Assembly (NCBI GenBank): GCA_022842995.1
Contig: JALHOM010000005.1
Location: forward strand, 6,503-70,502
Length of the DNA stretch: 64,000 bases
Source of the DNA: Candidatus Saccharimonadota bacterium
Lineage (GTDB): Bacteria > Patescibacteriota > Saccharimonadia > Saccharimonadales > 2-12-FULL-41-12
Reading direction: 5' to 3'
The translations under genes and the position numbers were made by a program. This document shows positions 1-63,762 of this stretch, piece by piece. The notes beneath the pieces are model-generated. The model saw only the letters and a program-made list of their open reading frames with translations. It did not search any database and was not told the DNA's origin. Each line of letters begins with the position of its first letter. Position 1 is the first letter of the stretch.

Positions 1-10
1 GCCATTGATT

Positions 11-478
11 ATGAAAAAGATATTTAGAAAATTTGCAGCCAAGATCTCTGTGTTGGTCGGTTCGGCGAATGCATTTTTGCTGGCCCTTTTGATCGTGATA
101 ATCTGGGCGACAACCGGTCCAGCTTTTGATTTTTCGGATACGTGGCAGCTAGTTATTAATACGAGCACGACGATTGTAACGTTTTTGATGGTTTTTTTAA
201 TTCAAAATACCCAGAATCGAGACGCAAAGGCCATGCAACTTAAGCTGGATGAGCTTATTCGATCTACTACCGCACGTAACGTTTTCGTAGATCTAGAAGA
301 AATGAGCGATGAAGAGTTGGCGCAACTAGATAAAGAATTTCAGGCAATCCACGAAAAACAGGCATCAACGAAAATCATGGTCAAGCTTCATCAGTCTATC
401 AAGCTGGAACACGAGCGGCGTCGTAAGGGCGTTTTATCACCAGCGTCCATAAATGAATTTTTGCATAAAAAGATTTAG
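11..478 (+). CDS. low-affinity iron permease family membrane protein (Fet4/PF04120-like)
   Basis: ORF 5..478. It has two hydrophobic helices and the FLIQNTQNRD...LKLDELI pattern typical of this family, followed by a charged tail. ATG at 11 is preferred over TTG at 5. Confidence 0.6.
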   Translation: MKKIFRKFAAKISVLVGSANAFLLALLIVIIWATTGPAFDFSDTWQLVINTSTTIVTFLMVFLIQNTQNRDAKAMQLKLDELIRSTTARNVFVDLEEMSDEELAQLDKEFQAIHEKQASTKIMVKLHQSIKLEHERRRKGVLSPASINEFLHKKI

Positions 479-7053: not shown

Positions 7054-9663
7054 ATGGCTAAGAAACCAAAAGATAACGATGACAGTGGCATAACCTACTT
7101 CGGTGAGGCTATTGATCCTGATATTCAGAAAAAAGTCGATGACTACATGGAGCTCGAAGATGAAGTCGCGGGCGAAGCCGATAGTATTCCTGACGAGCCT
7201 CAAGTTGATTTAGGTGGTGTTGGAGTACGTGATCCCGAGGTTGAGAGCGCCCCTCTTCTGCCAACGGACAAATTACCGGATGATCTAAAGGCCGACAAGT
7301 CAGGAGTCAAAAAGTCCACTAAAGTGGCGGTCCTGCATGCGGATGAATTAGTTAAAGAAGTCGAGGACGCTGGAGCGATAGAGACTGACGCCGGTGGAAT
7401 TCCCGGCGACACTCCAGGGCTGAACGATGAGGCGGAAATACAGCCCGCGGCCGAAGAGGCTGATTTGGCTGCGGCCGAAGAACTGGTTCAATCTCAGCCG
7501 GCTAAAAAGCCAAATTCAAAGAAGATTATGGTAGCTCATGATGAGGACCCTGAAGAGAATGTAGGCCCTGATGTTGAGCCAAGCGAAGAGCCTGCGATAG
7601 ATTCTGTGGACGCGCCGGTCAAAGCTGATGAAAATGTTGCTCAAGGCGAACTTGAGCCTCAGTCGAATAAGATAAATATTCGCGTCGACGAATCTGAAAA
7701 TTCGTCCGCTGATCGGGAGCCGACAGTCGACGATGACGCCGAGGCCTCCGATGTCGTACATCTGGCGGATGAAGAAATAGAGGCTCTGTCCGACGAGCAA
7801 GATGACGACGAAGAGTTTGATCAGAATGCAACTGTTGGTGAATACCTCGATGATTTAGAAGCGAATGACGAACCTAAGGCTCCCCTGCATCAGGCTCAAG
7901 ATCTGACCGACTTTGTTCCAAAGGAATCTTCCACTATTAATTCTTCTATTCCAATGGATGACGCAGTAACCTCGCAGGCGATTGCCGATATCATGGCTAC
8001 CGACTCCGATACGTTGCTTGGTATTGAAGACAAGAATAAGAAAGAAGCGCCACCGTTAGCGGTTGAACCAAAGAAGAAGAAAAGTAAGGCGAAACGACCG
8101 AATATCTTTAAGCTTCTTTTCACGAAGCCGCTCTATAGAAATAGTCTTATTGCGGCTATTTTATTGGGTATCGGAGCTGTCGCCGCAGTTCCGGTGTCGC
8201 GTTATTATATGCTTAATGCGGCCGGCGTACGCGTTTCTACAAGTCTTAAAGTTTTAGACGAAAAAACATCCCTGCCTCTGAAAAATGTTGAGGTTACTGT
8301 TGACGGAAAAAGTTCGAAAACCGATGGCGATGGCAATGTGTCATTGAGCGGCATTCGGCTTGGCAGGCAAGAGATCGTCGTTAAAAAGCCAGCTTTTGCC
8401 GAACTGAAGAAAACACATGTCTTAGGCTGGGGGAGTAACCCATTAGGTGATTACCGTATTGCTCCTACTGGCATTCAGTACAGCTTCAAGTTAATCGACT
8501 GGCTTTCTGAGAGACCAATAGCCGGCGGGGAAGTGTCTTATGGAGAAGCGGTGGCAAAGATCAGCGAAAAAGGTGAGGCGGTCTTGACGTTACCTGCAGC
8601 CGAAGAAACGACTATAACCGTTGATATTAAGGGTGATAATTATCGGATCGAGAAACAAGAGGTGAAAACCACAGCCAAAGACCAGATAGTGGTTAAGCTA
8701 GTTCCAAGTAAAAAACATGTCTTTGTATCAAAGCAGAGCGGTAAATACGATCTCTATAGCGTAGATGTTGACGGCAAAAACGAAGAAGTTTTGGTGAGTG
8801 GATCGGGTGTTGAAAAGCCAGATAGTCTGGGGATCGCACTTCATCCTAAGAAGAACATGGTTGCCTATACGGCGAGTCGTGAGAACACTAGAAATCAGGA
8901 CGGTTTTGTATTGACGACACTTTACATGGTTGACCTTGAGTCTAAGGAGATTAAGAAAGTTACGCAGTCGGAAAGAATTCAGATTATTGATTGGATAGGC
9001 GATAGGTTCGTTTATGTCAAAGTGGCCCAGGGTGCGTCCGAAGCGACGCCAGATAGGAACCGGTTGGTAAGTTATGACCTGGAATCTGGTCAGGAAAAAG
9101 AGCTGGCCAGCACTAATTACTTTAATGACGTTATTTCGGCCGGCGGAGCCCTGTATTACAGCCCGGCTCAATATCAAGTTACCGGCAGTGTTGGTTTGTA
9201 TAAAATCAATGCCGATGGCAGTAACAAAAAAACAATTTTCCAAAAAGAAGTATGGAATCTCTTTAGAACTAGCTTTGACAAATTAAGCCTGTCGGTTGGC
9301 CAAGATTGGTACGAACTTACTTTGGCTAACGATAGCCTGACAAAAGTCGGCGGAGCACCAAGCGTCCTTAAATCACGGGTCTATGTGCCAGACAGTGACG
9401 GCAAACGAAATCTTTGGATTGATGAAAGAGACGGCAAGACGGTTCTTATGAATTACCAAACTGCCACTAAATCTGAACAGCCACTGATCACACAATCGGG
9501 TATTCGAAATCCTGTTCGATGGCTTGATGATGGTCATATTATCTACCGCGTGTCTGATGGCCAGGAAACGGCGGACTACGTCTACTCTATAAATGGTAGC
9601 GATCCAAAGAAAATTAGAGACGTCACCAATACGGCTGGCATTGATCGCTGGTACTATTTTTAA
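7054..9663 (+). CDS. large hypothetical protein: acidic disordered N-terminus, one TM helix, carboxypeptidase-regulatory-like and TolB/PD40-like beta-propeller region
   Basis: 869-aa ORF. About 340 aa are D/E/P-rich low-complexity sequence, followed by a TM helix (SLIAAILLGIGAVAAVPV), then beta-rich repeats (GKYDLYSVDVDGKN, DGKRNLWIDERDGK) of TolB/PD40 style. Confidence 0.55.
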   Translation: MAKKPKDNDDSGITYFGEAIDPDIQKKVDDYMELEDEVAGEADSIPDEPQVDLGGVGVRDPEVESAPLLPTDKLPDDLKADKSGVKKSTKVAVLHADELVKEVEDAGAIETDAGGIPGDTPGLNDEAEIQPAAEEADLAAAEELVQSQPAKKPNSKKIMVAHDEDPEENVGPDVEPSEEPAIDSVDAPVKADENVAQGELEPQSNKINIRVDESENSSADREPTVDDDAEASDVVHLADEEIEALSDEQDDDEEFDQNATVGEYLDDLEANDEPKAPLHQAQDLTDFVPKESSTINSSIPMDDAVTSQAIADIMATDSDTLLGIEDKNKKEAPPLAVEPKKKKSKAKRPNIFKLLFTKPLYRNSLIAAILLGIGAVAAVPVSRYYMLNAAGVRVSTSLKVLDEKTSLPLKNVEVTVDGKSSKTDGDGNVSLSGIRLGRQEIVVKKPAFAELKKTHVLGWGSNPLGDYRIAPTGIQYSFKLIDWLSERPIAGGEVSYGEAVAKISEKGEAVLTLPAAEETTITVDIKGDNYRIEKQEVKTTAKDQIVVKLVPSKKHVFVSKQSGKYDLYSVDVDGKNEEVLVSGSGVEKPDSLGIALHPKKNMVAYTASRENTRNQDGFVLTTLYMVDLESKEIKKVTQSERIQIIDWIGDRFVYVKVAQGASEATPDRNRLVSYDLESGQEKELASTNYFNDVISAGGALYYSPAQYQVTGSVGLYKINADGSNKKTIFQKEVWNLFRTSFDKLSLSVGQDWYELTLANDSLTKVGGAPSVLKSRVYVPDSDGKRNLWIDERDGKTVLMNYQTATKSEQPLITQSGIRNPVRWLDDGHIIYRVSDGQETADYVYSINGSDPKKIRDVTNTAGIDRWYYF

Positions 9664-19489: not shown

Positions 19490-21064
19490 TTATTTGGCGG
19501 CGGCAATTTTTGATAGTGGCCGGGATGACTTATCGCCGATCAGCCGTTTATAGGCTAATTCAGCGCTGATCAGGCACATAGGCATACCGATACCCGGCAC
19601 GGTCGTTGCTCCTACGTAGAGCAGGTTGGGAATTTTTGGATGCTGATTATTGGGCCTAAAAATGGCGGTTTGCTTGAGCGTATGGGCAAAGCCGAGCGCC
19701 GTGCCTTGGTATGAGTGATAGTCGCTTTCGAATTCTTTGGCCGTGTAGAGTTTTTTGTAAACAATCTTATTCTTAAACCCTGGCATGCGGAGTTGGCGTT
19801 CCATGGTATCGAGGATTTTCTCGGCATAGTCTTGGTAATCTTGTTCGCTAAATTTGAGCGTTGCTGGCAAGGGGACCAGTGCGAAGATATTCTCGTGGCC
19901 TTTCGGGGCGACCGAAGGGTCGGTTTTGTTGGGGTTACAGACGTAAAACGAAGGATCATCGGGTAGTGCCTTCGTGTCGAATATCGCTTTGAAATTTTTG
20001 TTCCAATCTTTTGAAAATACGAGGTTGTGATGCTCGAGTTCTGGATATTCACCTTCAATACCCAAGTACATCAACAAAGCACTGGGCGCCATTGTGCGCT
20101 TGCCCCATGATTTTGCACTAAACTCTCGGTGCCCACTGTCGAGTAGCTGTGTATCGGTAAAGTGTCGGTCGGCGTTACTGATGACAATGTCTGCTTTAAG
20201 TTCTTTGCCTCCCGCTATAACGCCGGTTGCCCGTCCCCCGCTTACCTCTATCGACGAGACAGGAGAACTAAGGTGAATCTTAACCCCACGGTCTTCACAT
20301 AATTTTGCCAGACTTTTTGTGAGCTCGTATATTCCGCCCATAGGGTAGAAAACGCCTTGCTTGAAGTCGACATGAGACATGATGTTGTAGAGTGCTGGGG
20401 TGTTTTTAGGGCTCGCCCCTAAGAAGACGACGTGGTAGAGCAGGATTTTTTGTAATTCTTTTGAAGTGAATTTCTTAGAAACGTATTTTTCTAAATTACT
20501 TAACACGTTAAGCTTTAGGCCTTCGGTCATCATTTGCGGTGTCATAAAGTCACGCACAGAGTCATAGTTTTTGTATAAAAAACGCTCCATGGCAATCTTG
20601 TATTGTTTTGATGAACTGTGGAGGTATTTTTCTAGTTTTTCGACCGCTTGAGGCTCGAGGGCTTCGAGAGTTGGCTTATCTTTAGTCAGGTTACCGTGGA
20701 TTTTAGTAAGGCCAATTAGGGTGTCCTTAAAAACGACCTGATAGCTCGGGTCAAGTCGGATAAGATCAAGATGATCGTTAATGTCTTCGCCAAGTAGCTT
20801 GAAATAATGTTCAAAGACGTCGGGCATGAGATACCAGCTCGGGCCAGTATCGAACCGGAAGGTATCTTTTTTTGGTTTAGCACTTATCGACTGTTCTCGC
20901 CAGATGCCGTTTTTATCTTTGCCGACCTCTATCATCCCTGCGCGGCCACCGATGTGGGCGTTTTTTTCGAAGATTTCAACGTCAAATCCGGCCTCTGCGA
21001 ATAGTGCAGCGCTCGATAGACCGCCGTAGCCTGATCCAATGATGATTACTTTACGCTTCGGCAT
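19490..21064 (-). CDS. crtI: phytoene desaturase family FAD-dependent oxidoreductase
   Basis: N-terminal dinucleotide fold VIIIGSGYGGLSSAALFAEAGFDVEIFEKNAHIGGRA. CrtI-like length (524 aa) and C-terminal GTxPGxG-like VGATTVPGIGMP. Confidence 0.8.
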   Translation of the reverse strand: MPKRKVIIIGSGYGGLSSAALFAEAGFDVEIFEKNAHIGGRAGMIEVGKDKNGIWREQSISAKPKKDTFRFDTGPSWYLMPDVFEHYFKLLGEDINDHLDLIRLDPSYQVVFKDTLIGLTKIHGNLTKDKPTLEALEPQAVEKLEKYLHSSSKQYKIAMERFLYKNYDSVRDFMTPQMMTEGLKLNVLSNLEKYVSKKFTSKELQKILLYHVVFLGASPKNTPALYNIMSHVDFKQGVFYPMGGIYELTKSLAKLCEDRGVKIHLSSPVSSIEVSGGRATGVIAGGKELKADIVISNADRHFTDTQLLDSGHREFSAKSWGKRTMAPSALLMYLGIEGEYPELEHHNLVFSKDWNKNFKAIFDTKALPDDPSFYVCNPNKTDPSVAPKGHENIFALVPLPATLKFSEQDYQDYAEKILDTMERQLRMPGFKNKIVYKKLYTAKEFESDYHSYQGTALGFAHTLKQTAIFRPNNQHPKIPNLLYVGATTVPGIGMPMCLISAELAYKRLIGDKSSRPLSKIAAAK

Positions 21065-25749: not shown

Positions 25750-27360
25750 ATGGATAAAGATCCTGCCGGGCAAAATGCCGATCCAAGACCTACAGATCCT
25801 CTACAGGCGGAGGATAAACCCTTTGGGTTTTTGAGACGCGCTGGAGTCATTTCTGGCATGGGATTGGCTGTGCTTGGGGCAGCGCCGAATTTGGTCGGAA
25901 CTGTTGGCGGTGAGGCTGGGAATGCGGTCGCTGAAGCCAGCGCTAACCCAGGTCAAGAGCATCGCGCAGGCGCCAAGCAGAACGTGGTCGTTACCGCTCC
26001 GAGTCTTAGGCAGGTTGCTGGTGAATACCCTGAGCTTTCAAAAGTTAGAAAAAACATCCGATCTTACAATGTTTTGCCCAAAAACAAGGAAAAGCGAATT
26101 GTTTTTGGCGGCGCGCTTGATCCTTCTCAAGTTAAAATCATCGGCGCACCCGCAAAAGAGGGCTACGTCGCAACAGATCAGGTGAATCGATATGCCGTTT
26201 TGTGGCAATACAAAATCGATCGAACCACAGGTAAAGAGGTAGCGATTTATAAGGCAGAAAAATTAGGTCAAAATAAGCTCAAGCTTAAAAAAGGCCAAAG
26301 ATTATTTGCCGTACGCGTATTAGAAGAGCCTGCCAAGACCGAAGCTCCAACAGGTTTGCCCGAAAACCCATCGGTAGTGTCGACTGAACCACTGCCACAA
26401 CCTCAGCCGAACCAAAATCCACCTACGCAGAATGAAATACACAATGAAACTCCAGCGCCTGAGCTTTCAAACGAGCAATTTGAAGCAAAAGAGACCCAAA
26501 AGTTCCTCGAAGAAAAAACGGTAAATCTGGAAGTAGTTAATGCCAGTGGAACGCGCCTTGGGGCCGATGCCGTCGCAACGTCCGCACATGTTTTTTATAT
26601 TCCGAAAACCGGACAGCAACAGGTTTTGGTAGAACGATATGTCGCAGACGGCAAGCACTACATGGTATTCATGCGTCCAGCGGTTGTAAGTGGCGGGACA
26701 AGTAGAGATAATTTTGAGACTTTAGGCGAAATTAAATCGGTTGCCCTGCCATTATCCGATGAAGATACGGCGTTTGTTTCCATGAATCCCGATAGGTCTG
26801 CTGTTGATATTGCCGAGGCTTATAATCGAGAAATTAAGGATAATTTGACTCAACTTCAACCGGGCGAAAAAGTCTATGCGGCTGGCTGGCCATTGAACAT
26901 TTCTGCCGGTCGAGGTACTGAGAATCTACAGCGGTGGCAAGGTGAAGTACTAGATAGGACGGCCGTAATAAGTATGGGTCCGTTGCCGAACACGCAGAGA
27001 CTATCGACGACGCTAGTTGCGTTTAAAAATAGTCAAGAGGGCTTTGCGCCAGAAGTTTGGTCTAGTGGTATGCAGCTATTTACGACTCGGGTTGAAGGCA
27101 CAGGCAGTAATCGGCGTCTAGTAACGAGAGAAATCGGAACCTATTCGGCTAAAATTGCCCTAAATCCAAGCTATAACCAAGAATTTGTAACCCGCTATGG
27201 CTTGAAACTAGACATTCTCAACAGTAACTCTACACTTGGTTTTGTTGCTCGCCCCGATGCAGCTGCTGGAAACGAAGGTCCGAGATACATGGAATATTTT
27301 GTCGTTGGGCTTGGTGATCTTCCGGCTGGTGCCACTCTTTTGACCACTCAACGACAGTAA
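25750..27360 (+). CDS. hypothetical secreted protein with possible trypsin-like (S1) C-terminal fold
   Basis: An RR-containing N-terminal region (FLRRAGVISGMGLAVLGAAP), a Pro/Gln linker, then TSAHVF...DTAFV...AAGWP...WSSGM spacing reminiscent of a His/Asp/Ser protease. The domain call is weak. Confidence 0.45.
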   Translation: MDKDPAGQNADPRPTDPLQAEDKPFGFLRRAGVISGMGLAVLGAAPNLVGTVGGEAGNAVAEASANPGQEHRAGAKQNVVVTAPSLRQVAGEYPELSKVRKNIRSYNVLPKNKEKRIVFGGALDPSQVKIIGAPAKEGYVATDQVNRYAVLWQYKIDRTTGKEVAIYKAEKLGQNKLKLKKGQRLFAVRVLEEPAKTEAPTGLPENPSVVSTEPLPQPQPNQNPPTQNEIHNETPAPELSNEQFEAKETQKFLEEKTVNLEVVNASGTRLGADAVATSAHVFYIPKTGQQQVLVERYVADGKHYMVFMRPAVVSGGTSRDNFETLGEIKSVALPLSDEDTAFVSMNPDRSAVDIAEAYNREIKDNLTQLQPGEKVYAAGWPLNISAGRGTENLQRWQGEVLDRTAVISMGPLPNTQRLSTTLVAFKNSQEGFAPEVWSSGMQLFTTRVEGTGSNRRLVTREIGTYSAKIALNPSYNQEFVTRYGLKLDILNSNSTLGFVARPDAAAGNEGPRYMEYFVVGLGDLPAGATLLTTQRQ

Positions 27361-27424
27361 AATTCGTTCGTTGACGTTATTTTAACTCAATAGTTTTTAC
27401 TGTGATTATTGAACTACGAATAAA

Positions 27425-27778
27425 TGGTGGGGGCGGCTGGACTTGAACCAGCGACCAATCGGTTATGCGTACCACTACAGCTTTCGCTGCCTTTTTCAAG
27501 TTTGCTGGTCTGGACTGTCTCTTCATCCGCTATGTATAACGGAGCCTGCCATTCAGTCTCTACACCTTCCCGTGTTTTTTACGCGACGGGCTTGGCTCGG
27601 GATTACCATATTAAAGGCTTCCCCGAATTTGACAGGATATACTTACTAGTTACCCGGTAAGCAGCCCTTTTTTATGCGACATGTCTAAGGCTGAAATCTG
27701 ATAATAAAATCAGTGCAGAATTTAGATTTAGTTACATGTAAATTGAGCCGACTGCTCTAACCACTGAGCTACGCCCCC
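27425..27778 (-). tRNA. tRNA(CAU), ileX/tRNA-Ile2-like (or elongator Met), interrupted by a group I intron in the anticodon loop
   Basis: Joined exons give the 76-nt sequence GGGGGCGTAGCTCAGTGGTTAGAGCAGTCGGCT|CATAACCGATTGGTCGCTGGTTCAAGTCCAGCCGCCCCCACCA. This is a full cloverleaf with a G1-C72 pair (not initiator-like), anticodon CAT and an encoded CCA. The D-loop and TTGGTCGCTGGTTCAAGTCCAGC match E. coli ileX as I remember it. Confidence 0.85.
27468..27745 (-). ncRNA. group I intron, subgroup IC3 (Azoarcus/Anabaena tRNA-intron type), 278 nt, no ORF
   Basis: The minus-sense sequence contains GTCAAATTCGGGGAAGCCT, TATGGTAATCCCGAGCCAAGC and GAAGGTGTAGAGACTGAATGGCAGG. These are near-identical to core strings of the Azoarcus tRNA-Ile intron as recalled. 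P3 CCTG/CAGG, P7 GACTG/CAGTC and a P9 CAGC-GAAA-GCTG hairpin are present. The 5' exon ends in U33 and the intron ends in G. Confidence 0.85.
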
Positions 27779-27842
27779 GTGTGGTTAACAGATAGAGTAT
27801 ACCAGAAAAAGAGCTCACAGTGGTATACTATATTTTGTAAAA

Positions 27843-28277
27843 ATGTTCAAAAATAAAGATCAGATCCTGGAAAAGTTTAAGCTACTGACCGATGTGCGAA
27901 ATCTCGGTTTAATTACATTTGGCGTGGTTGCGCTTTTGGTAACATGGAGTGGCGTTAAAGTAGTCCAGACCAATTATGAGCTCGATAAAAAAATTGCCAT
28001 TGCACGGCAAAAAAACGAAGTTTCGCGACTCGAAAACGAGAACCTGAAGTTAAAAAACAAATACTACGAGTCCAATCAGTACCTTGAATTAGCGGCTCGA
28101 CGACAGTTTGGTAAAGCTGCCGATGGTGAAAAACTGTACATCATCCCCGAGGAGGTTGCGCTACGTTACACGAAAGATCGTCCGGTTCAGCAAGGTCAGG
28201 CCGAACCTTTCGAGGAAAAGAAGAGTTCATTTCAGGCAAATCTTGATGCCTGGCATGAGTTTTTGTTTCGGAAATAA
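27843..28277 (+). CDS. septum formation initiator family protein (FtsB/DivIC-like)
   Basis: N-terminal TM helix followed by a coiled coil (QKNEVSRLENENLKLKNKYY...YLELAARRQFG), typical of DivIC/FtsB. Confidence 0.7.
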   Translation: MFKNKDQILEKFKLLTDVRNLGLITFGVVALLVTWSGVKVVQTNYELDKKIAIARQKNEVSRLENENLKLKNKYYESNQYLELAARRQFGKAADGEKLYIIPEEVALRYTKDRPVQQGQAEPFEEKKSSFQANLDAWHEFLFRK

Positions 28278-31776: not shown

Positions 31777-33261
31777 ATGAGGCGACGCGACGTTCATGTT
31801 CGGATTCATTATGCAGGATTAGTATTCTGTGTGTCTTTTCTTGTTGGGTTGGTCGTCGGGTTATTTTCTGGATTTGAAACACGCTTTAACGTGCTTTGGA
31901 TAATTGGTTCGGTGTTACTGCTTCCGTTGGTTGTGGCGCTACTACGGATGAAATTATTTTCGGTGGTGACTTTAGTAGTGGCCTCAGGGTTTATGATTGG
32001 GAATTTTCTTGGCGTTGGAGCTATCCAGGAGCGACAACAACTATCGACGCAGGCAGGGAAATCGATGGTTATTAGTGGACGAATTACCGACGACGTTCGT
32101 CAATCAGCCGAGGACGGAAAGTTGCAGTTTGCTCTCTCGGGGTTGTCGGTAGACGGGCGAGAATACGAGGGTAAAATTTGGGTGAATCTGGCATCTCAAG
32201 AACTAACTACCCTAAAAAGGGGTGATAGCGTAGAAGTAAAAGGCTTTGCTTTGCCAGGGTTTGGCGCCTACGGGCTTAGTCTCGGGAGGGCTGAAGTTAT
32301 GAGTCTCAGTCAAACGAGCAATCAAGATATAGGGCTGCAAGCGAGAGATACTTTTGCTGCGGCTACGGAAGGTAGCTTGCCCGAGCCAGAACGATCTTTG
32401 GGACTGGGCTATTTGTTAGGCATGAAGACAAATTTACCAGAGGACCTATCGAGCAATATTCAGATGCTCGGATTAACGCATATTGTGGTTGCGAGTGGTT
32501 ACAATCTGACGATTCTTGTTAACTTGGCACGCGGCTTGTTCCAAAAAATATCTAAATATCTAAGCTTCGCTACAGGACTTGGCATGGTCGGTTCCTTTAT
32601 CGCCATTACTGGCTTTAGCCCCTCTATGACTCGGGCTGGTTTGGTGGCGACACTTTCGCTTCTGGCGTGGTATTACGGGAGGAAATTTCACCCCATAAAA
32701 CTCTTGATTTATGCCGCTAGTATCACCCTGGCCTATAACCCTAGCTATTTGCTCGGTGATGTTGGTTGGTATTTATCTTTCACGGCTTTTGCGGGGATTT
32801 TGATCATCGCGCCGTTAATTACGAGGTATTTTTATCCTGATCCAGATAAAGTGTCGCTTATTCCCGAGACAGTTATTGCGACCTTTTCTGCCCAGCTGGC
32901 GACGTTGCCGATTATTTTGCATGTCTTCGGAAGTTTTTCGCTACTTTCGATAGTGGCCAATGTATTGATCGTGCCGATTATTCCATTTGCTATGTTGTCT
33001 GTTTTTGTGTCGGGATTAAGCGGTCTTTTATTGCCGTTTTTGGCGGGCATCATTTCGTTGCCGGCAGTTTGGATATTGAAATACTGTACGTTAGTTATAA
33101 ATTTTATTGCCAGCTTTGAGTTGAGTCCAGTTTCTTATAAGGCTGACTTATCGCACGTCATGACAATGTACGGAATCGGGTCCGTTTTAGTGCTCTGGCT
33201 GATGTTTAAAACCAAGCATCGTTTTGTAACGTATTCAAAGAAAGTAGAAGTAGGTTCATGA
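31777..33261 (+). CDS. comEC: ComEC/Rec2 family DNA internalisation channel protein (no metallo-beta-lactamase domain)
   Basis: Polytopic membrane protein with an OB-like insert and the competence-domain motif GLTHIVVASGYNLTIL. The ORF opens at GTG 31756; the first ATG is at 31777. Confidence 0.8.
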   Translation: MRRRDVHVRIHYAGLVFCVSFLVGLVVGLFSGFETRFNVLWIIGSVLLLPLVVALLRMKLFSVVTLVVASGFMIGNFLGVGAIQERQQLSTQAGKSMVISGRITDDVRQSAEDGKLQFALSGLSVDGREYEGKIWVNLASQELTTLKRGDSVEVKGFALPGFGAYGLSLGRAEVMSLSQTSNQDIGLQARDTFAAATEGSLPEPERSLGLGYLLGMKTNLPEDLSSNIQMLGLTHIVVASGYNLTILVNLARGLFQKISKYLSFATGLGMVGSFIAITGFSPSMTRAGLVATLSLLAWYYGRKFHPIKLLIYAASITLAYNPSYLLGDVGWYLSFTAFAGILIIAPLITRYFYPDPDKVSLIPETVIATFSAQLATLPIILHVFGSFSLLSIVANVLIVPIIPFAMLSVFVSGLSGLLLPFLAGIISLPAVWILKYCTLVINFIASFELSPVSYKADLSHVMTMYGIGSVLVLWLMFKTKHRFVTYSKKVEVGS

Positions 33262-35006
33262 ATAAGATTTTCGCCAACTATGAGTTAATGAAGACTGGTC
33301 TGTTCCGCGTCACGGCGCTAGTCTGCGCCGTAATTTATGCATTAATTTTTGGAGCTAGCACAGTTATGGCTATGCCGGTAATCTCTGGGTTGAAAACGGG
33401 TGATTCAGCGTCCGCTGCGCGGGAATATGTGTCGATTTATAATAATTCTTCGGAAGCGCAAGATGTTTCTGGCTGGTGCTTGGTTTATGCGTCGGCGAGT
33501 GACGCTACCAAGACAAATTTGGGCTGTTTAACCCCGCCCGCAAATAGCAAGTTAATGATTGAGCCGTGGAGTTCGGCGACATTTGCAACCAATGAATTTG
33601 TAACTTCGGTGTCTAGTTTTTCGCCTGATGTGGCGTTTAAGGCGGGCATAAGTGCGAGTGGTGGGCATTTGCGATTAGTCGATAGCACCAAAAATGAGGT
33701 CGACAAATTAGGTTGGGGTACGGCCGTTAGTCCAGAAGGGACTGCGATCACTGCTCCGGCGAGCGGTAAGATACTTCTCAGGAAATCGGCGAGCGACCCT
33801 CTTCGTTTGGTAGATACCAACAATAATACGAGCGATTTTATGGAAACGTTGCTTCAGGCTTTGCCGGCATCGGGACTGTATGAAGAGTTATTGCCTCAGG
33901 ACGTGTGCGGAAACATCGACGGCCTACAGATATCAATCCCTGATGATTATTTTGCACAGCCAGAGGGTGTTTGCCTGCAGGATATTTGCGATAACATCGA
34001 AGGACTCCAGGTAGGTGTACCGGCAGGATATGAATCACTTGACGGCGAAAACTGCCATGAAAAACCACCTGTTGTATACGAAAAAATTTTAATCACCGAG
34101 CTGAAGCCTAACGCTACTGGTGTCGACGACGGGCAAGAATTTATTGAACTACATAATCCCTCTAGTGTAGCGGTTAATCTGGAGGGTTATGTCTTGGCGC
34201 TTGGACCAACGTTTTTCAAGACATATACTTTGCCTTCACTGCAGATTGATCCGCTAGGTTATCTGGTTTTGAGCGATGCTCAGACGGGCATTATTTTACC
34301 TAACTCCAGTGCTTCAATGAGGCTTTCGGACCCAAATGGGGCGGTGGTTTCACAAACCGATGTTTACGATAGCCCTAAAGACGATGCCTCGTGGTCGCTG
34401 ATCGATAATTTGTGGACGTACTCAGAGGCCCTGTCGCCGGGTAGTGTTAATGTGGCTTCGACAGTCTCGGGTATAGGAGGTATTCCGGCAACTGGTAGTA
34501 CAGAAGACTGTGGTCCGGGCAAATTTAGGAATCCTGAAACAAATCGCTGCAAGACCATAGAAACAGAGGATGACCTCAAGGTTTGTGCTGCTAACCAAGA
34601 ACGGAACCCAGAGACCAATCGTTGTCGGAGCGTTTTGACTGAGTCTGGATTAGTTCCATGCAAAGAAGGGCAAGAGCGAAACCCCGAGACAAACCGCTGT
34701 CGTAGTGTATTATCTGCTACTTCTGTGCTTGCTCCATGCCCTGCTGGACAAGAAAGGAATCCTGAAACAAATCGCTGCCGAAAGTCAGGTCTTGATACGT
34801 CGTCTGGTCTAAGTGCCGTTCAGGATATCGAAAGTGGCGGTTCTGGGCAGGCAGGCGTGTCGATAGGTAAAGGTCTTGCTATGGTGGCGGCGATAGTTGC
34901 CTTGTGTCTCGGCTACCTTATGTATGAGTGGCGGATTGAAATCCGTCGACTGGTCCGGCATTCTTTCCGCCGAATAGTCATGAGAAAATCCGTTGGCACT
35001 TCCTAG
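33258..35006 (+). CDS. lamin-tail-domain (LTD) surface protein with four Cys-bracketed RNPETNRC repeats and a C-terminal TM anchor
   Basis: ATGA overlap with comEC. Two LTD-like segments (EYVSIYNNS...GWCL; EFIELHNPS...GYVL), 4x C-x3-(Q/K)(E/F)RNPETNRC(R/K), and a C-terminal helix (LAMVAAIVALCLGYLMY). Confidence 0.65.
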   Translation: MNKIFANYELMKTGLFRVTALVCAVIYALIFGASTVMAMPVISGLKTGDSASAAREYVSIYNNSSEAQDVSGWCLVYASASDATKTNLGCLTPPANSKLMIEPWSSATFATNEFVTSVSSFSPDVAFKAGISASGGHLRLVDSTKNEVDKLGWGTAVSPEGTAITAPASGKILLRKSASDPLRLVDTNNNTSDFMETLLQALPASGLYEELLPQDVCGNIDGLQISIPDDYFAQPEGVCLQDICDNIEGLQVGVPAGYESLDGENCHEKPPVVYEKILITELKPNATGVDDGQEFIELHNPSSVAVNLEGYVLALGPTFFKTYTLPSLQIDPLGYLVLSDAQTGIILPNSSASMRLSDPNGAVVSQTDVYDSPKDDASWSLIDNLWTYSEALSPGSVNVASTVSGIGGIPATGSTEDCGPGKFRNPETNRCKTIETEDDLKVCAANQERNPETNRCRSVLTESGLVPCKEGQERNPETNRCRSVLSATSVLAPCPAGQERNPETNRCRKSGLDTSSGLSAVQDIESGGSGQAGVSIGKGLAMVAAIVALCLGYLMYEWRIEIRRLVRHSFRRIVMRKSVGTS

Positions 35007-62019: not shown

Positions 62020-63096
62020 CTATTTGATTTTGAAACCGACTCTTATTTTACCTATGCCTTTTTCGGCGCTTACAGCATCATTAACAGTAATTGCGTCGGC
62101 TCGCGTAGGGGCATCAATCCCAAGGGTAGTTTCAATAGTGCTCCCAGCCGCAACGTCTGGTTGGAAGGGCTGGCCTGGCATGGGATAAATACCGCCTGCC
62201 TCTGAATATGTTCCTTGCTGCGAAGCGGAGCCTATATTCGACAGCCGAAACGGCTTATCCGTAGAATTTTCAATTCTTAATGTAGTTATTACAAATATTC
62301 CTACATACGCTTTTTCATTGCCGAGTGTCGGACTAAACTCTGTCTTTAATATGGTTACCTTAACCCCATCTACTTCTGCCGTAGAGCCGAGCGGAAGACG
62401 TTTGTCTTGTGTGGGCGTCGGTGAAATTGGCTCAGGTGAAATTATTTGTTGCGCATTATTGTGTGATAGTAAAGCAGAGATTCCACCAAATACTACGGTA
62501 GTCACAATGACAGTAATAATTAAGTATGTCTTCTTAAGCTTGACACTAAATTTCAATAGAAGCGTATAAATAACAAAGAAAAAGAGCAATGAGACAATTA
62601 GGAACACCGTATCCTTGACGAAGTGCATTAAAATTCCCGGTATCAAAAATAGCAAGTGAGCGATTATTATATTTCGTTTTTGCACCCAAGTCATGTTAAA
62701 TAGCCGCAATATTCCAAAGACCAGAAGCGGTGCTAGCGTTATGAAAAGTAGAGGTAAAATAAATAGTTCGAGCAGCAGCGAATCGAATATGCCAAATCGG
62801 TACACGAAGAACGAAGAGCCAAAAATTATTTTCAGTAAGGCAACAACCAAAGTACTGAAGATCGCCAACATATATAGATTTTGTGGTTTGAATGCCGTAA
62901 TCTCTTTTGATGCCCTATTGTCATTTTCAAATGGTTTAAATGATTCATGTATATGTTCTTCACTCCATCCATGATTGCGAAAATGATCTTGTAGTTGATT
63001 AATAGGATAGCCATGCCGCAGATGCTCTTTGATGTATTCATGGATACTATGTTTATTATCTAACATGTCACTGATTATAACAGCCAGGAACTTCAT
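62020..63096 (-). CDS. polytopic membrane protein with C-terminal extracellular beta-rich domain (DUF4352-like)
   Basis: ORF 62020..63267. Its first 57 codons are read from the tRNA-derived repeat, and the same 36 aa also head the spurious ORF 63311..63589. The real start is taken as ATG 63096 (MKFLAVIISD...). It has five or six TM helices, then GSTAEVDGVKVTILKTEF...FVITTLRIENSTDKPF. The gene looks AT-rich by eye. Confidence 0.55.
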   Translation of the reverse strand: MKFLAVIISDMLDNKHSIHEYIKEHLRHGYPINQLQDHFRNHGWSEEHIHESFKPFENDNRASKEITAFKPQNLYMLAIFSTLVVALLKIIFGSSFFVYRFGIFDSLLLELFILPLLFITLAPLLVFGILRLFNMTWVQKRNIIIAHLLFLIPGILMHFVKDTVFLIVSLLFFFVIYTLLLKFSVKLKKTYLIITVIVTTVVFGGISALLSHNNAQQIISPEPISPTPTQDKRLPLGSTAEVDGVKVTILKTEFSPTLGNEKAYVGIFVITTLRIENSTDKPFRLSNIGSASQQGTYSEAGGIYPMPGQPFQPDVAAGSTIETTLGIDAPTRADAITVNDAVSAEKGIGKIRVGFKIK

Positions 63097-63157
63097 CCTG
63101 TCGAATATGATTCGGACTAAAAAAGAATCACTTAGATAGCATCTATGTAATATCGAA

Positions 63158-63286
63158 ATGGTAGCGGGGCCAGGACTCGCCCACGTTCCGCGGGCCCGCC
63201 ACAACATCTTTGCAAAGCCAGTTTGCAAGAGTTGATGGCCTTGCAAAAGCCCACTGGGCTTTCTCACCTGGGACCTTTAGCGTCCT
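63158..63286 (-). repeat. element Y copy B: tRNA-fMet 3' portion (position ~44 to CCA) with an 87-nt insert in the T-loop
   Basis: Minus sense: CAGGACGCTAAAGGTCCCAGG-T-[GAGAAAGCCCAGTGGGCTTTTGCAAGG...GGCGGGCCCGCGGAACGTGGG]-CGAGTCCTGGCCCCGCTACCA. The flanks are identical to the genuine tRNA at 63670-63700. Confidence 0.9.
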
Positions 63287-63669: not shown

Positions 63670-63744
63670 TTGGTAGCGGGGCCAGGACTCGAACCTGGGA
63701 CCTTGTGGTTATGAGCCACACGAGCTGCCACTGCTCTACCCCGC
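63670..63744 (-). tRNA. tRNA-fMet (initiator-like, anticodon CAU), CCA encoded
   Basis: CGCGGGGTAGAGCAGTGGCAGCTCGTGTGGCTCATAACCACAAGGTCCCAGGTTCGAGTCCTGGCCCCGCTACCA. The 5' CGCGGGG...GAGCAG resembles the E. coli initiator and positions 1:72 are unpaired (C:U). The anticodon stem has only two consecutive G-C pairs instead of three. Confidence 0.85.
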
Positions 63745-63762
63745 GATATATATTGTGTACTT

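Follow-up and report, generated by a model that had tools for sequence, protein, structure and literature searches.

The split tRNA gene

The analysed window, a stretch of 64,000 nt with a GC content of 45.5%, encodes ordinary bacterial proteins, AspRS, MurC, ComEC, DinB and IMP dehydrogenase among them, and beside a divIC-like open reading frame it holds a tRNA gene in two pieces:

27778..27746, minus strand: 5' exon of 33 nt, tRNA-Ile2(CAU) positions 1-33 (GGGGGCG...GUCGGCU), last nucleotide U33; located by exact sequence search and by ARAGORN on spliced and unspliced sequence
27745..27468, minus strand: intron of 278 nt (caauuu...gguacg), with C(+1) at 27745 and the omega-G at 27468
27467..27425, minus strand: 3' exon, tRNA positions 34-76, CAUAACCGAU...CCCCCACCA (CAUAACC...ACCA), first nucleotide the anticodon residue C34

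When joined, the exons yield a 76-mer that ARAGORN recognized as a standard cloverleaf, tRNA(CAU), and the CCA end is encoded in the gene as part of the 3' exon. In its intron mode the program placed a 278-nt intron at 33-34 ('cggct-Intron-cataa'), and in default mode it called no gene at 27425-27778. The two informative runs substantiate, with exact coordinates, the split cloverleaf with a 278-nt insert that a preliminary description of this locus had proposed. Such a split tRNA is invisible to standard tRNA finders, and the genome would thus seem to be devoid of tRNA-Ile2 and of AUA decoding. No sigma-70-like promoter was recognized upstream of the gene in a promoter scan, and no second tRNA-Ile2 was seen within the 64 kb.

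The intron and the 3' exon both begin with the dinucleotide CA, so that by sequence alone the junction could be placed at 33/34, 34/35 or 35/36, an ambiguity of 2 nt. Only the 33/34 junction combines U(-1) with an omega-G, the intron ending in G27468 directly before CAUAACC. Among the relatives described below, 39 of 127 introns start with a nucleotide other than C, and for these the CAU anticodon cannot be rebuilt at a shifted junction, because the 3' exon is CAUAA, as fixed by the search pattern, and the intron starts with T or A. U33 moreover lies opposite a conserved G of the internal guide; this and the compensatory variation in P1 place the 5' splice site immediately 3' of U33. The earlier proposal of an insertion after U33, as the sole junction with U(-1) and omega-G, is borne out by both ARAGORN and the P1 pairing.

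Internal guide and P1

The first helix of the intron is formed by the following two strands:

27745..27750, minus strand: 5' strand of P1, exon C29 G30 G31 C32 U33 and then intron C(+1), with 27746 and 27745 on either side of the 5' splice site
27662..27667, minus strand: internal guide GGGCUG, intron +79..+84

The resulting pairs are G27667-C(+1), the wobble G27666.U33, G27665-C32, C27664-G31, U27663.G30 and G27662-C29, a P1 of 6 bp in which the splice site carries the canonical U33.G pair. In the minimum free energy (MFE) fold of the 5' region, at -23.4 kcal/mol, this helix is combined with P2 and a long P1-extension hairpin.

Conservation of the guide was assessed in an alignment of the region upstream of P3 from which the exon was left out. 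This alignment replaced a selection of the guide by best exon pairing, which was circular and whose exon-swap control discriminated weakly, with a mean run of 3.89 versus 3.71. At the position of the GGGCUG of the window, 82 of 93 distinct relatives hold an element uGGG(C/U)(U/C). The guide G homologous to G27666 is invariant in the 82, and its neighbors covary with the exon: the nucleotide opposite exon N31 pairs in 81 cases (64 G-C, 14 A-U and 3 G-U) with a single mismatch, and the C29-G pair is formed in all seven hosts that have C29. The preliminary description had seen UUUCAGCC (27696-27689) as the only candidate guide, which would put the splice-site U opposite an A. Both assignments have to be withdrawn in favor of the conserved and covarying GGGCUG at 27667..27662, which provides U33.G.

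The CAGCC element inside UUUCAGCC is specific to the window and occurs in 0 of 24 Saccharibacteria-type relatives. Relative to the P1 fold, a forced pairing of CAGCCUU with AAGGGCUG raises the free energy by only 2.2 kcal/mol. In the Rfam search this hairpin was put into the P1 slot of the model, which is why the cmscan match begins 48 nt inside the intron. In the folding model, pairing of CAGCCUU with the guide (AAGGGCUG) might possibly lead to some misfolding. The order of folding matters here, because exon nucleotides 29-31 serve both P1 and the anticodon stem.

Intron class and ribozyme core

The Rfam model Intron_gpI (RF00028) matches 27697..27487 (-) over its full length (model 1-253) with 68 bits (E=4e-15), above the gathering score of 50, and the region thus scores as a group I intron. 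Together with the homology to introns labelled IC3 and the lack of an endonuclease ORF, this sustains the initial classification as an ORF-less intron of IC3 type. The subgroup is assigned by homology, with 175-192 nt alignable to the Ile2 33/34 introns that carry the label IC3 in Table S5 of a 2026 survey (PMC13011429). In line with a compact core, no P5abc-like extension is present and L2 and L9 are GUAA and GAAA tetraloops, features read directly from the sequence. The elements of the ribozyme are:

27642..27661, minus strand: P2 hairpin CUUAC-CGG-GUAA-CUA-GUAAG with a GNRA (GUAA) tetraloop; part of the MFE fold, each pair with 3-13 compensatory changes among 22 sequences
27487..27636, minus strand: catalytic core, from Rfam alignment, RNAalifold covariation and column-to-coordinate mapping
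27636-27631 / 27550-27545, minus strand: P3
27626-27621 / 27602-27597, minus strand: P4
27617-27616 / 27607-27606, minus strand: P5
27596-27585 / 27574-27564, minus strand: P6/P6a
27563-27555, minus strand: J6/7 and 5' strand of P7, GUAGAGACU
27543-27526, minus strand: P8, read directly from the sequence
27523-27512, minus strand: J8/7 and 3' strand of P7, AAGAGACAGUCC; the start of P9 lies within the catalytic core 27487..27636
27468..27508, minus strand: P9 domain with an ACCA.../...UGGU closing stem and the hairpins CUU-GAAA-AAG and GCAGC-GAAA-GCUGU (GAAA tetraloops)
to 27468, minus strand: 3' end of the intron after the P9 hairpins, UACG, ending in omega-G

Of 71 family columns conserved to at least 90%, the window intron keeps 70, and the lone deviating column adjoins an insertion of 1 nt in P9. 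With 22 diverse members, the RNAalifold consensus recovered the P2, P3, P4, P5, P6/P6a, P8 and P9 hairpins, with compensatory changes in 33 of 51 consensus pairs. P7 is invariant among the relatives and hence uninformative for covariation. The same consensus also paired GGGC of the guide with the P7 strand GUCC (columns 1-4/215-218), which we regard as an artefact of the omitted exon and of the P3/P7 pseudoknot. The ribozyme core is intact, and nothing points to decay.

Judged by these features, the intron is likely to splice; a literature search returned no experimental splicing of any Ile2 33/34 intron. By established group I chemistry, free guanosine would attack the bond between U33 and C(+1), omega-G would dock next, and ligation of the exons would produce the 76-nt tRNA. 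TilS would subsequently convert C34 to lysidine, resulting in a lysidine-AU anticodon.

Identity of the host tRNA

In the spliced tRNA, G1 and C72 are paired, and the anticodon stem consists of G27.U43, U28-A42, C29-G41, G30-C40 and G31-C39. The three consecutive G-C pairs (29-31/39-41) of initiators are absent, and the tRNA has a non-initiator body. The top E. coli match (5,426 genomes) is a tRNA-Ile adjoining mug, with 88% identity over 69 nt and 64/76 overall, and with the same D-arm, variable loop and T-arm. We take this gene to be ileX. The elongator-type tRNA(CAU) genes of Saccharibacteria share only 57-59 of 76 positions with the split tRNA, as compared with 64 for the E. coli tRNA-Ile. 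As a distinct elongator-type tRNA(CAU) (GCCGGCGUAGCUCAGUUGGUUAGAGCG...) and an initiator-type one are likewise present in Saccharibacteria loci, the split gene represents a third CAU species, tRNA-Ile2. The E. coli match and the non-initiator body support the original view of an ileX-like tRNA(CAU) as host. A tilS gene was not found among the 10 large ORFs scanned in the window.

The 3' exon opens with C34, the site of lysidine formation, and TilS would be able to act on this residue only after splicing. The preliminary description was thus correct in placing the splice junction directly beside the lysidine site, an unremarkable feature, as it recurs in dozens of Ile2-like genes from many phyla. 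Being so common, the arrangement is evidently tolerated.

Relatives and genomic setting

Relatives were retrieved with a pattern that joins the intron's 3' end to CATAA and that matched at least 120 species-representative genomes; the motif GAAAG..G.AGU.G...G/CAUAA (the slash marking the junction) is common to these genome loci. In all, more than 120 related loci come from genomes, a further 21 from metagenomes and 28 from viral contigs. ARAGORN in intron mode, applied to 120 of them, returned inconsistent boundaries and Leu, Ser or Met anticodons, and a custom exon finder was used in its place. With this tool, 104 of the at least 120 genome matches and the window were resolved into exons and intron. 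Since the finder requires T(-1) and the pattern a G before CATAA, the presence of U(-1) and omega-G in 127 of 127 introns is given by construction and provides no evidence.

The host genes fall into two groups, initiator tRNA-fMet and ileX-like tRNA, the latter in Burkholderiales, Acidobacteriota, Planctomycetota, Chloroflexota, Bacillota, Armatimonadota and Saccharibacteria. The closest genome relatives among the matches listed, L028, L119, L032 and L106, show 79-85% identity over the core, and these four as well as L006 are metagenome-assembled genomes (MAGs) of Candidatus Saccharibacteria. In 5/5 of these MAGs the split tRNA is adjoined by a homologue (42-53% amino-acid identity) of the divIC-like ORF at 27843-28277. 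From these nearest relatives and the one syntenic gene we conclude that the window is probably part of a Saccharibacteria chromosome and that its intron was probably inherited vertically beside the divIC-like gene. The Ile2 33/34 intron class is thereby seen to be established in Saccharibacteria at a syntenic position.

Comparison with known tRNA introns

The classical classes of bacterial tRNA introns are Leu.3Ug, Arg.5Ug, fMet.2Ug and Ile2.5Ug, to which 17 more were added by Williams (2020, bioRxiv 10.1101/2020.01.27.920355). In that scheme position 2 denotes 33/34 and position 5 denotes 36/37, the site of the Azoarcus intron, in agreement with the preliminary description, which had put that insertion after CAU. 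The tFind program also calls Ile2 33/34 introns (Williams 2020). In the 2026 survey (PMC13011429), position 33/34 is common in tRNA-fMet, and its Table S5 contains 'Ile2 (CAT) 33/34' introns of subgroup IC3 in Acidobacteriota and Bacillota_B, with 5' and 3' ends that closely match those of the window; the part of the survey's tables covered here lists no Ile2 33/34 intron for Patescibacteria. By its sequence, the locus is a member of this already catalogued class. The biological gain is therefore small: the class was known, and the window adds another copy without an ORF.

The Ile2 33/34 introns share with the window the host tRNA species, the insertion GGCU/...G/CAUAA, the guide (u)GGG(C/U)U(G), the P2-P9 core and the 3' end (GAAAG..GUAGUGGUA.G). 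The Bacillota_B example GCF_000018425.1 agrees with the window at 141 of 192 aligned positions. The window differs from the Ile2 33/34 introns in its host lineage, Saccharibacteria, and in the 33-nt filler that caps its P1 hairpin, the only peculiarity of the intron itself.

The cyanobacterial tRNA-fMet intron corresponds to fMet.2Ug (Biniszkiewicz et al. 1994), with the endonuclease I-Ssp6803I (Bonocora & Shub 2001). Position 33/34, the CUCAUAA anticodon loop and the ribozyme family are the same as in the window, and the fMet-hosted introns L018 and L073 align to it with scores of 189-194, interleaved with Ile2-hosted ones. The tRNA-fMet introns differ in that the host is an initiator, that full-length copies contain a sense PD-(D/E)XK gene (PF11645, E=3e-48) rather than an antisense HNH gene, and that the guide GGGCU(G), facing exon GGGCU, lacks the C29-G pair.

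Aligned locally with the window, Ile2- and fMet-hosted 33/34 introns scored 109-246, a Leu IC3 intron (an Acidobacteriota example) 126 and a Lys IC3 intron 119. Anabaena tRNA-Leu scored 67, the same value as a provisional version of the Azoarcus intron sequence. The cyanobacterial and plastid tRNA-Leu(UAA) intron (Leu.3Ug, IC3) has a very similar P9 and 3' end (GGCAG.AGCGAAAGCUG...) and likewise forms P1 on nucleotides of the anticodon stem and loop, but it resides in another tRNA at position 34/35. With the Azoarcus intron the window has in common the host tRNA species, the compact IC3 form, the GNRA loops L2 and L9 and the core motifs. The Azoarcus intron is, however, inserted after U36 (36/37), its guide GUG pairs with the anticodon CAU, and it lacks the long P1-extension hairpin. 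In the window, unlike the Azoarcus class, the 5' exon ends in GGCU followed by CAAUUU, and CAU starts the 3' exon.

The P1-extension hairpin and the homing endonuclease

The region between the two strands of P1 is organized as follows:

27668..27744, minus strand: P1-extension hairpin, intron +2..+78 (RNAfold)
27737-27731 / 27680-27674, minus strand: P1-extension stem a, intron +9..15 with +66..72
27726-27722 / 27688-27684, minus strand: P1-extension stem b, UCUAA/UUAGA
27689..27721, minus strand: apical filler, 33 nt, A/T-rich, intron +25..+57, with a CUGAU/AUCAG hairpin and UUUCAGCC (27696-27689)

The same two-stem hairpin folds in all the short relatives, L106, L006, L153, L158, L163, L165 and L169, and the stems differ by compensating changes: stem a is AUGU.AC/GU.GCAU in the window versus UUUGGC/GCCAAA in relatives, and stem b is UCUAA/UUAGA versus GUCUAG/CUAGAU.

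Most Saccharibacteria-type relatives contain an antisense HNH homing-endonuclease gene in the loop of the P1 hairpin. Full-length relatives have a P1 loop of constant size, 405-407 nt in three genome relatives (introns of 599-613 nt) and in 13 metagenome relatives. In the three genome relatives checked, the loop contains an ORF antisense to the tRNA, 137 aa in length in L028, that matches HNH-endonuclease families of PHROG (E=1e-19); Pfam did not recognize the HNH ORF of the relatives. All seven long Ile2 introns encode the antisense HNH protein, and 19 of 23 long fMet introns the sense PF11645 enzyme. ORF-less forms are nevertheless the majority of the family, with 97 of 127 introns shorter than 420 nt. 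The P1 loops of the short forms measure 44, 49, 55, 59, 71, 75, 78 (the window) and 121 nt. Independent losses of the endonuclease gene by deletion would leave just such a pattern, a single long form next to many different short ones.

In the window the 33-nt filler occupies the exact site of the antisense HNH gene of the relatives. No endonuclease-like ORF is present in the intron or elsewhere in the window, and a tblastn search for HNH or PD-(D/E)XK homologues gave no match better than E=0.25 anywhere in it. An exact 28-mer from the filler was absent from the metagenome contigs. A gap-tolerant alignment of the P1 loop with full-length relatives yielded fragmentary matches in mid-loop, and the homology that we propose from this alignment is limited to the flanks. 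The filler is probably the deletion scar of the HNH gene, with the flanks as the only parts that align convincingly. One might also picture the filler, through pairing of its CAGCCUU with AAGGGCUG, as a conformational gate that tunes the maturation of the sole AUA-decoding tRNA in a reduced-genome epibiont, the fold that sequesters the guide lying about 2 kcal/mol above the splicing-competent one. We regard such a function as highly improbable.

Interpretation and alternatives

We are largely confident that the locus is a single-copy-type tRNA-Ile2(CAU) gene, probably of a Candidatus Saccharibacteria, that is split at U33/C34 by an IC3-type group I intron, 278 nt long and without an ORF, vertically inherited and deprived of its HNH gene. 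The intron belongs to the Ile2 branch of a widespread family at position 33/34 of tRNA-fMet and tRNA-Ile2, in which full-length members of the branch have the antisense HNH gene in the P1 loop and the copy in the window would have lost it. The preliminary description had instead suggested an intron of the Azoarcus lineage that moved from 36/37 to 33/34, with the unusual guide UUUCAGCC and a U-A splice-site pair. The IC3 core motifs GUCAAAUUCGG, CCGAGCCAAGC and GAAGGUGUAGAGACU and the host tRNA species are indeed shared, and cmscan did force the CAGCCUU hairpin into its P1 slot. The shared strings are however no mark of Azoarcus, as the motifs are conserved to at least 90% in the whole 33/34 family and recur in tRNA-Leu, -Lys and -Arg IC3 introns, and the window is nearer to the 33/34 introns (109-246) than to the provisional Azoarcus sequence (67), at what is a classical site. 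The proposed guide is opposed by the canonical GGGCUG, whose U.G is conserved and whose neighbors covary, by the lack of CAGCC in all 24 close relatives, and by the true 5' splice site, which lies 48 nt upstream of the one implied by the P1 of cmscan. We consider this origin extremely unlikely; neither the shifted site nor the non-wobble splice-site pair is real.

The assignment of the host as tRNA-Ile2 has to be weighed against an elongator tRNA-Met, for which the lysidine issue would not arise. ARAGORN calls every CAU tRNA Met, and the acceptor stem with G4-C69/G5-C68 differs from the determinants of E. coli TilS, which are C4-G69/C5-G68. Against this stand the top E. coli homologue, the tRNA-Ile adjoining mug with its identical D-arm, variable loop and T-arm, the agreement of G27.U43, C29-G41, U12-A23 and A73 with E. 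coli tRNA-Ile2, the clearly different elongator-type tRNA(CAU) and initiator in the Saccharibacteria loci, and the classification of homologous hosts as Ile2 in the tables of PMC13011429, so that an elongator is very unlikely. Slightly less remote, albeit still improbable, is a decaying copy that does not splice, in which the ribozyme became inactive or trapped by a hairpin sequestering the internal guide after loss of the endonuclease, leaving a tRNA pseudogene. The endonuclease gene is gone, the 7-bp pairing with the guide is peculiar to the window and differs from the P1 fold by no more than 2.2 kcal/mol, the upstream scan showed no promoter-like site, and one conserved column deviates. Yet the cloverleaf is perfect with an encoded CCA end, 70 of the 71 conserved core positions are kept, P1, its extension and P2 are all in the MFE fold, and the stems of the extension are maintained by compensatory changes. 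ORF-less forms, at 97 of 127, are moreover the rule in the family, and no second tRNA-Ile2 was seen in the 64 kb. The genomes of the Saccharibacteria group are small, which we likewise count against decay.

For the family as a whole, the relatives of the split tRNA-Ile2 gene illustrate a homing cycle, in which an endonuclease form of constant length exists beside many independently shortened ones. The Ile2 branch appears to be a separate mobile lineage that is driven by the antisense HNH endonuclease, and phages with split tRNA-Ile2 genes of their own may carry it from one phylum to another. The antisense HNH reading frame ends within the complement of the tRNA 5' exon.

Host tRNA and endonuclease family

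In the group I introns that interrupt tRNA(CAU) genes between U33 and C34 (the 33/34 site), the endonuclease family is strictly tied to the host tRNA inside one ribozyme family. The comparison took in all 30 introns of at least 420 nt among the matches listed for the related split-tRNA loci L001-L149. A PD-(D/E)XK enzyme (PF11645) encoded in the sense orientation is found in 19 of the 23 long introns hosted by tRNA-fMet, and an antisense HNH enzyme in all seven of the long introns hosted by Ile2-like tRNAs, both counts again among the matches listed. The ribozymes of the two host classes interleave by similarity.

The HNH reading frame runs antisense to the tRNA in the full-length Ile2 33/34 introns (L028, L032, L119, L077, L099, L134 and L147), and the one in L028, a Candidatus Saccharibacteria locus, is placed as follows.

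L028 1823-2236, + strand: HNH endonuclease ORF, antisense to the tRNA

Its final 14 codons and the stop (…LAKLLIEPTALTAELPPLAP*) run along the strand complementary to the 5' exon of the tRNA, and this strand of the exon therefore codes for part of the endonuclease. The text of the 2026 survey (PMC13011429) is silent on HNH genes in introns of the Ile2 33/34 class.

Split tRNA genes on viral contigs

The intron pattern was also matched on 28 IMG/VR viral contigs (L122-L149, for example L147, L126 and L137), where 22 matches resolve to split tRNA(CAU) genes, most of them Ile2-like. Some of these genes sit on contigs of 190-360 kb, and some sit within tRNA arrays (L147 has 10 other tRNAs) and show atypical acceptor stems. 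Given the array setting and these stems, some of the split tRNA genes on viral contigs look phage-encoded. According to a 2014 review (PMC3984707), all phage group I introns known by then were in protein genes.

The initiator-type tRNA

Three G-C pairs in the anticodon stem are typical of bacterial initiator tRNAs. A gene of initiator type lies in the window.

63671-63745, - strand: initiator-type tRNA(CAU), intron-less, C1/A72 mismatch

As its anticodon stem contains U29-A41, it keeps just two of the three pairs. An initiator-type tRNA with the same features is present at the Saccharibacteria locus L006, and in other Saccharibacteria (L013, L054, L088 and L112) the fMet gene carries the 33/34 intron.

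Neighborhood of the split tRNA and other genes

27796-27804 and 27821-27829: perfect 9-nt inverted repeat, AGTATACCA-N16-TGGTATACT, read from the sequence
27424-27660, + strand: two mechanical ORFs (78 aa and 68 aa) on the strand opposite the ribozyme core and 3' exon
25750-27360, + strand: 536-aa ORF
7054-9663, + strand: 869-aa ORF
33258-35006, + strand: 582-aa ORF
62020-63267, - strand: 415-aa ORF
19490-21064, - strand: 524-aa ORF, phytoene desaturase model matches (CrtI family, E=2.5e-149; CrtID, E=2.8e-173)

The divIC-like ORF starts at 27843 and is divergent from the tRNA, whose 5' end is at 27778; the inverted repeat is within the 64-nt spacer that separates the two and might serve as an operator or form a hairpin. 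The two short antisense ORFs, with similar spurious ORFs at the equivalent place in L028, might be mis-annotated as proteins by gene callers. A distance of 65 nt separates the end of the 536-aa ORF from the tRNA gene's 3' end. This ORF was not found in the exact-sequence gene index; like the other large ORFs, of 869, 582 and 415 aa, it has no match in Pfam or NCBIfam. The 524-aa ORF places a carotenoid-pathway enzyme on what is apparently a reduced-genome Saccharibacteria chromosome.
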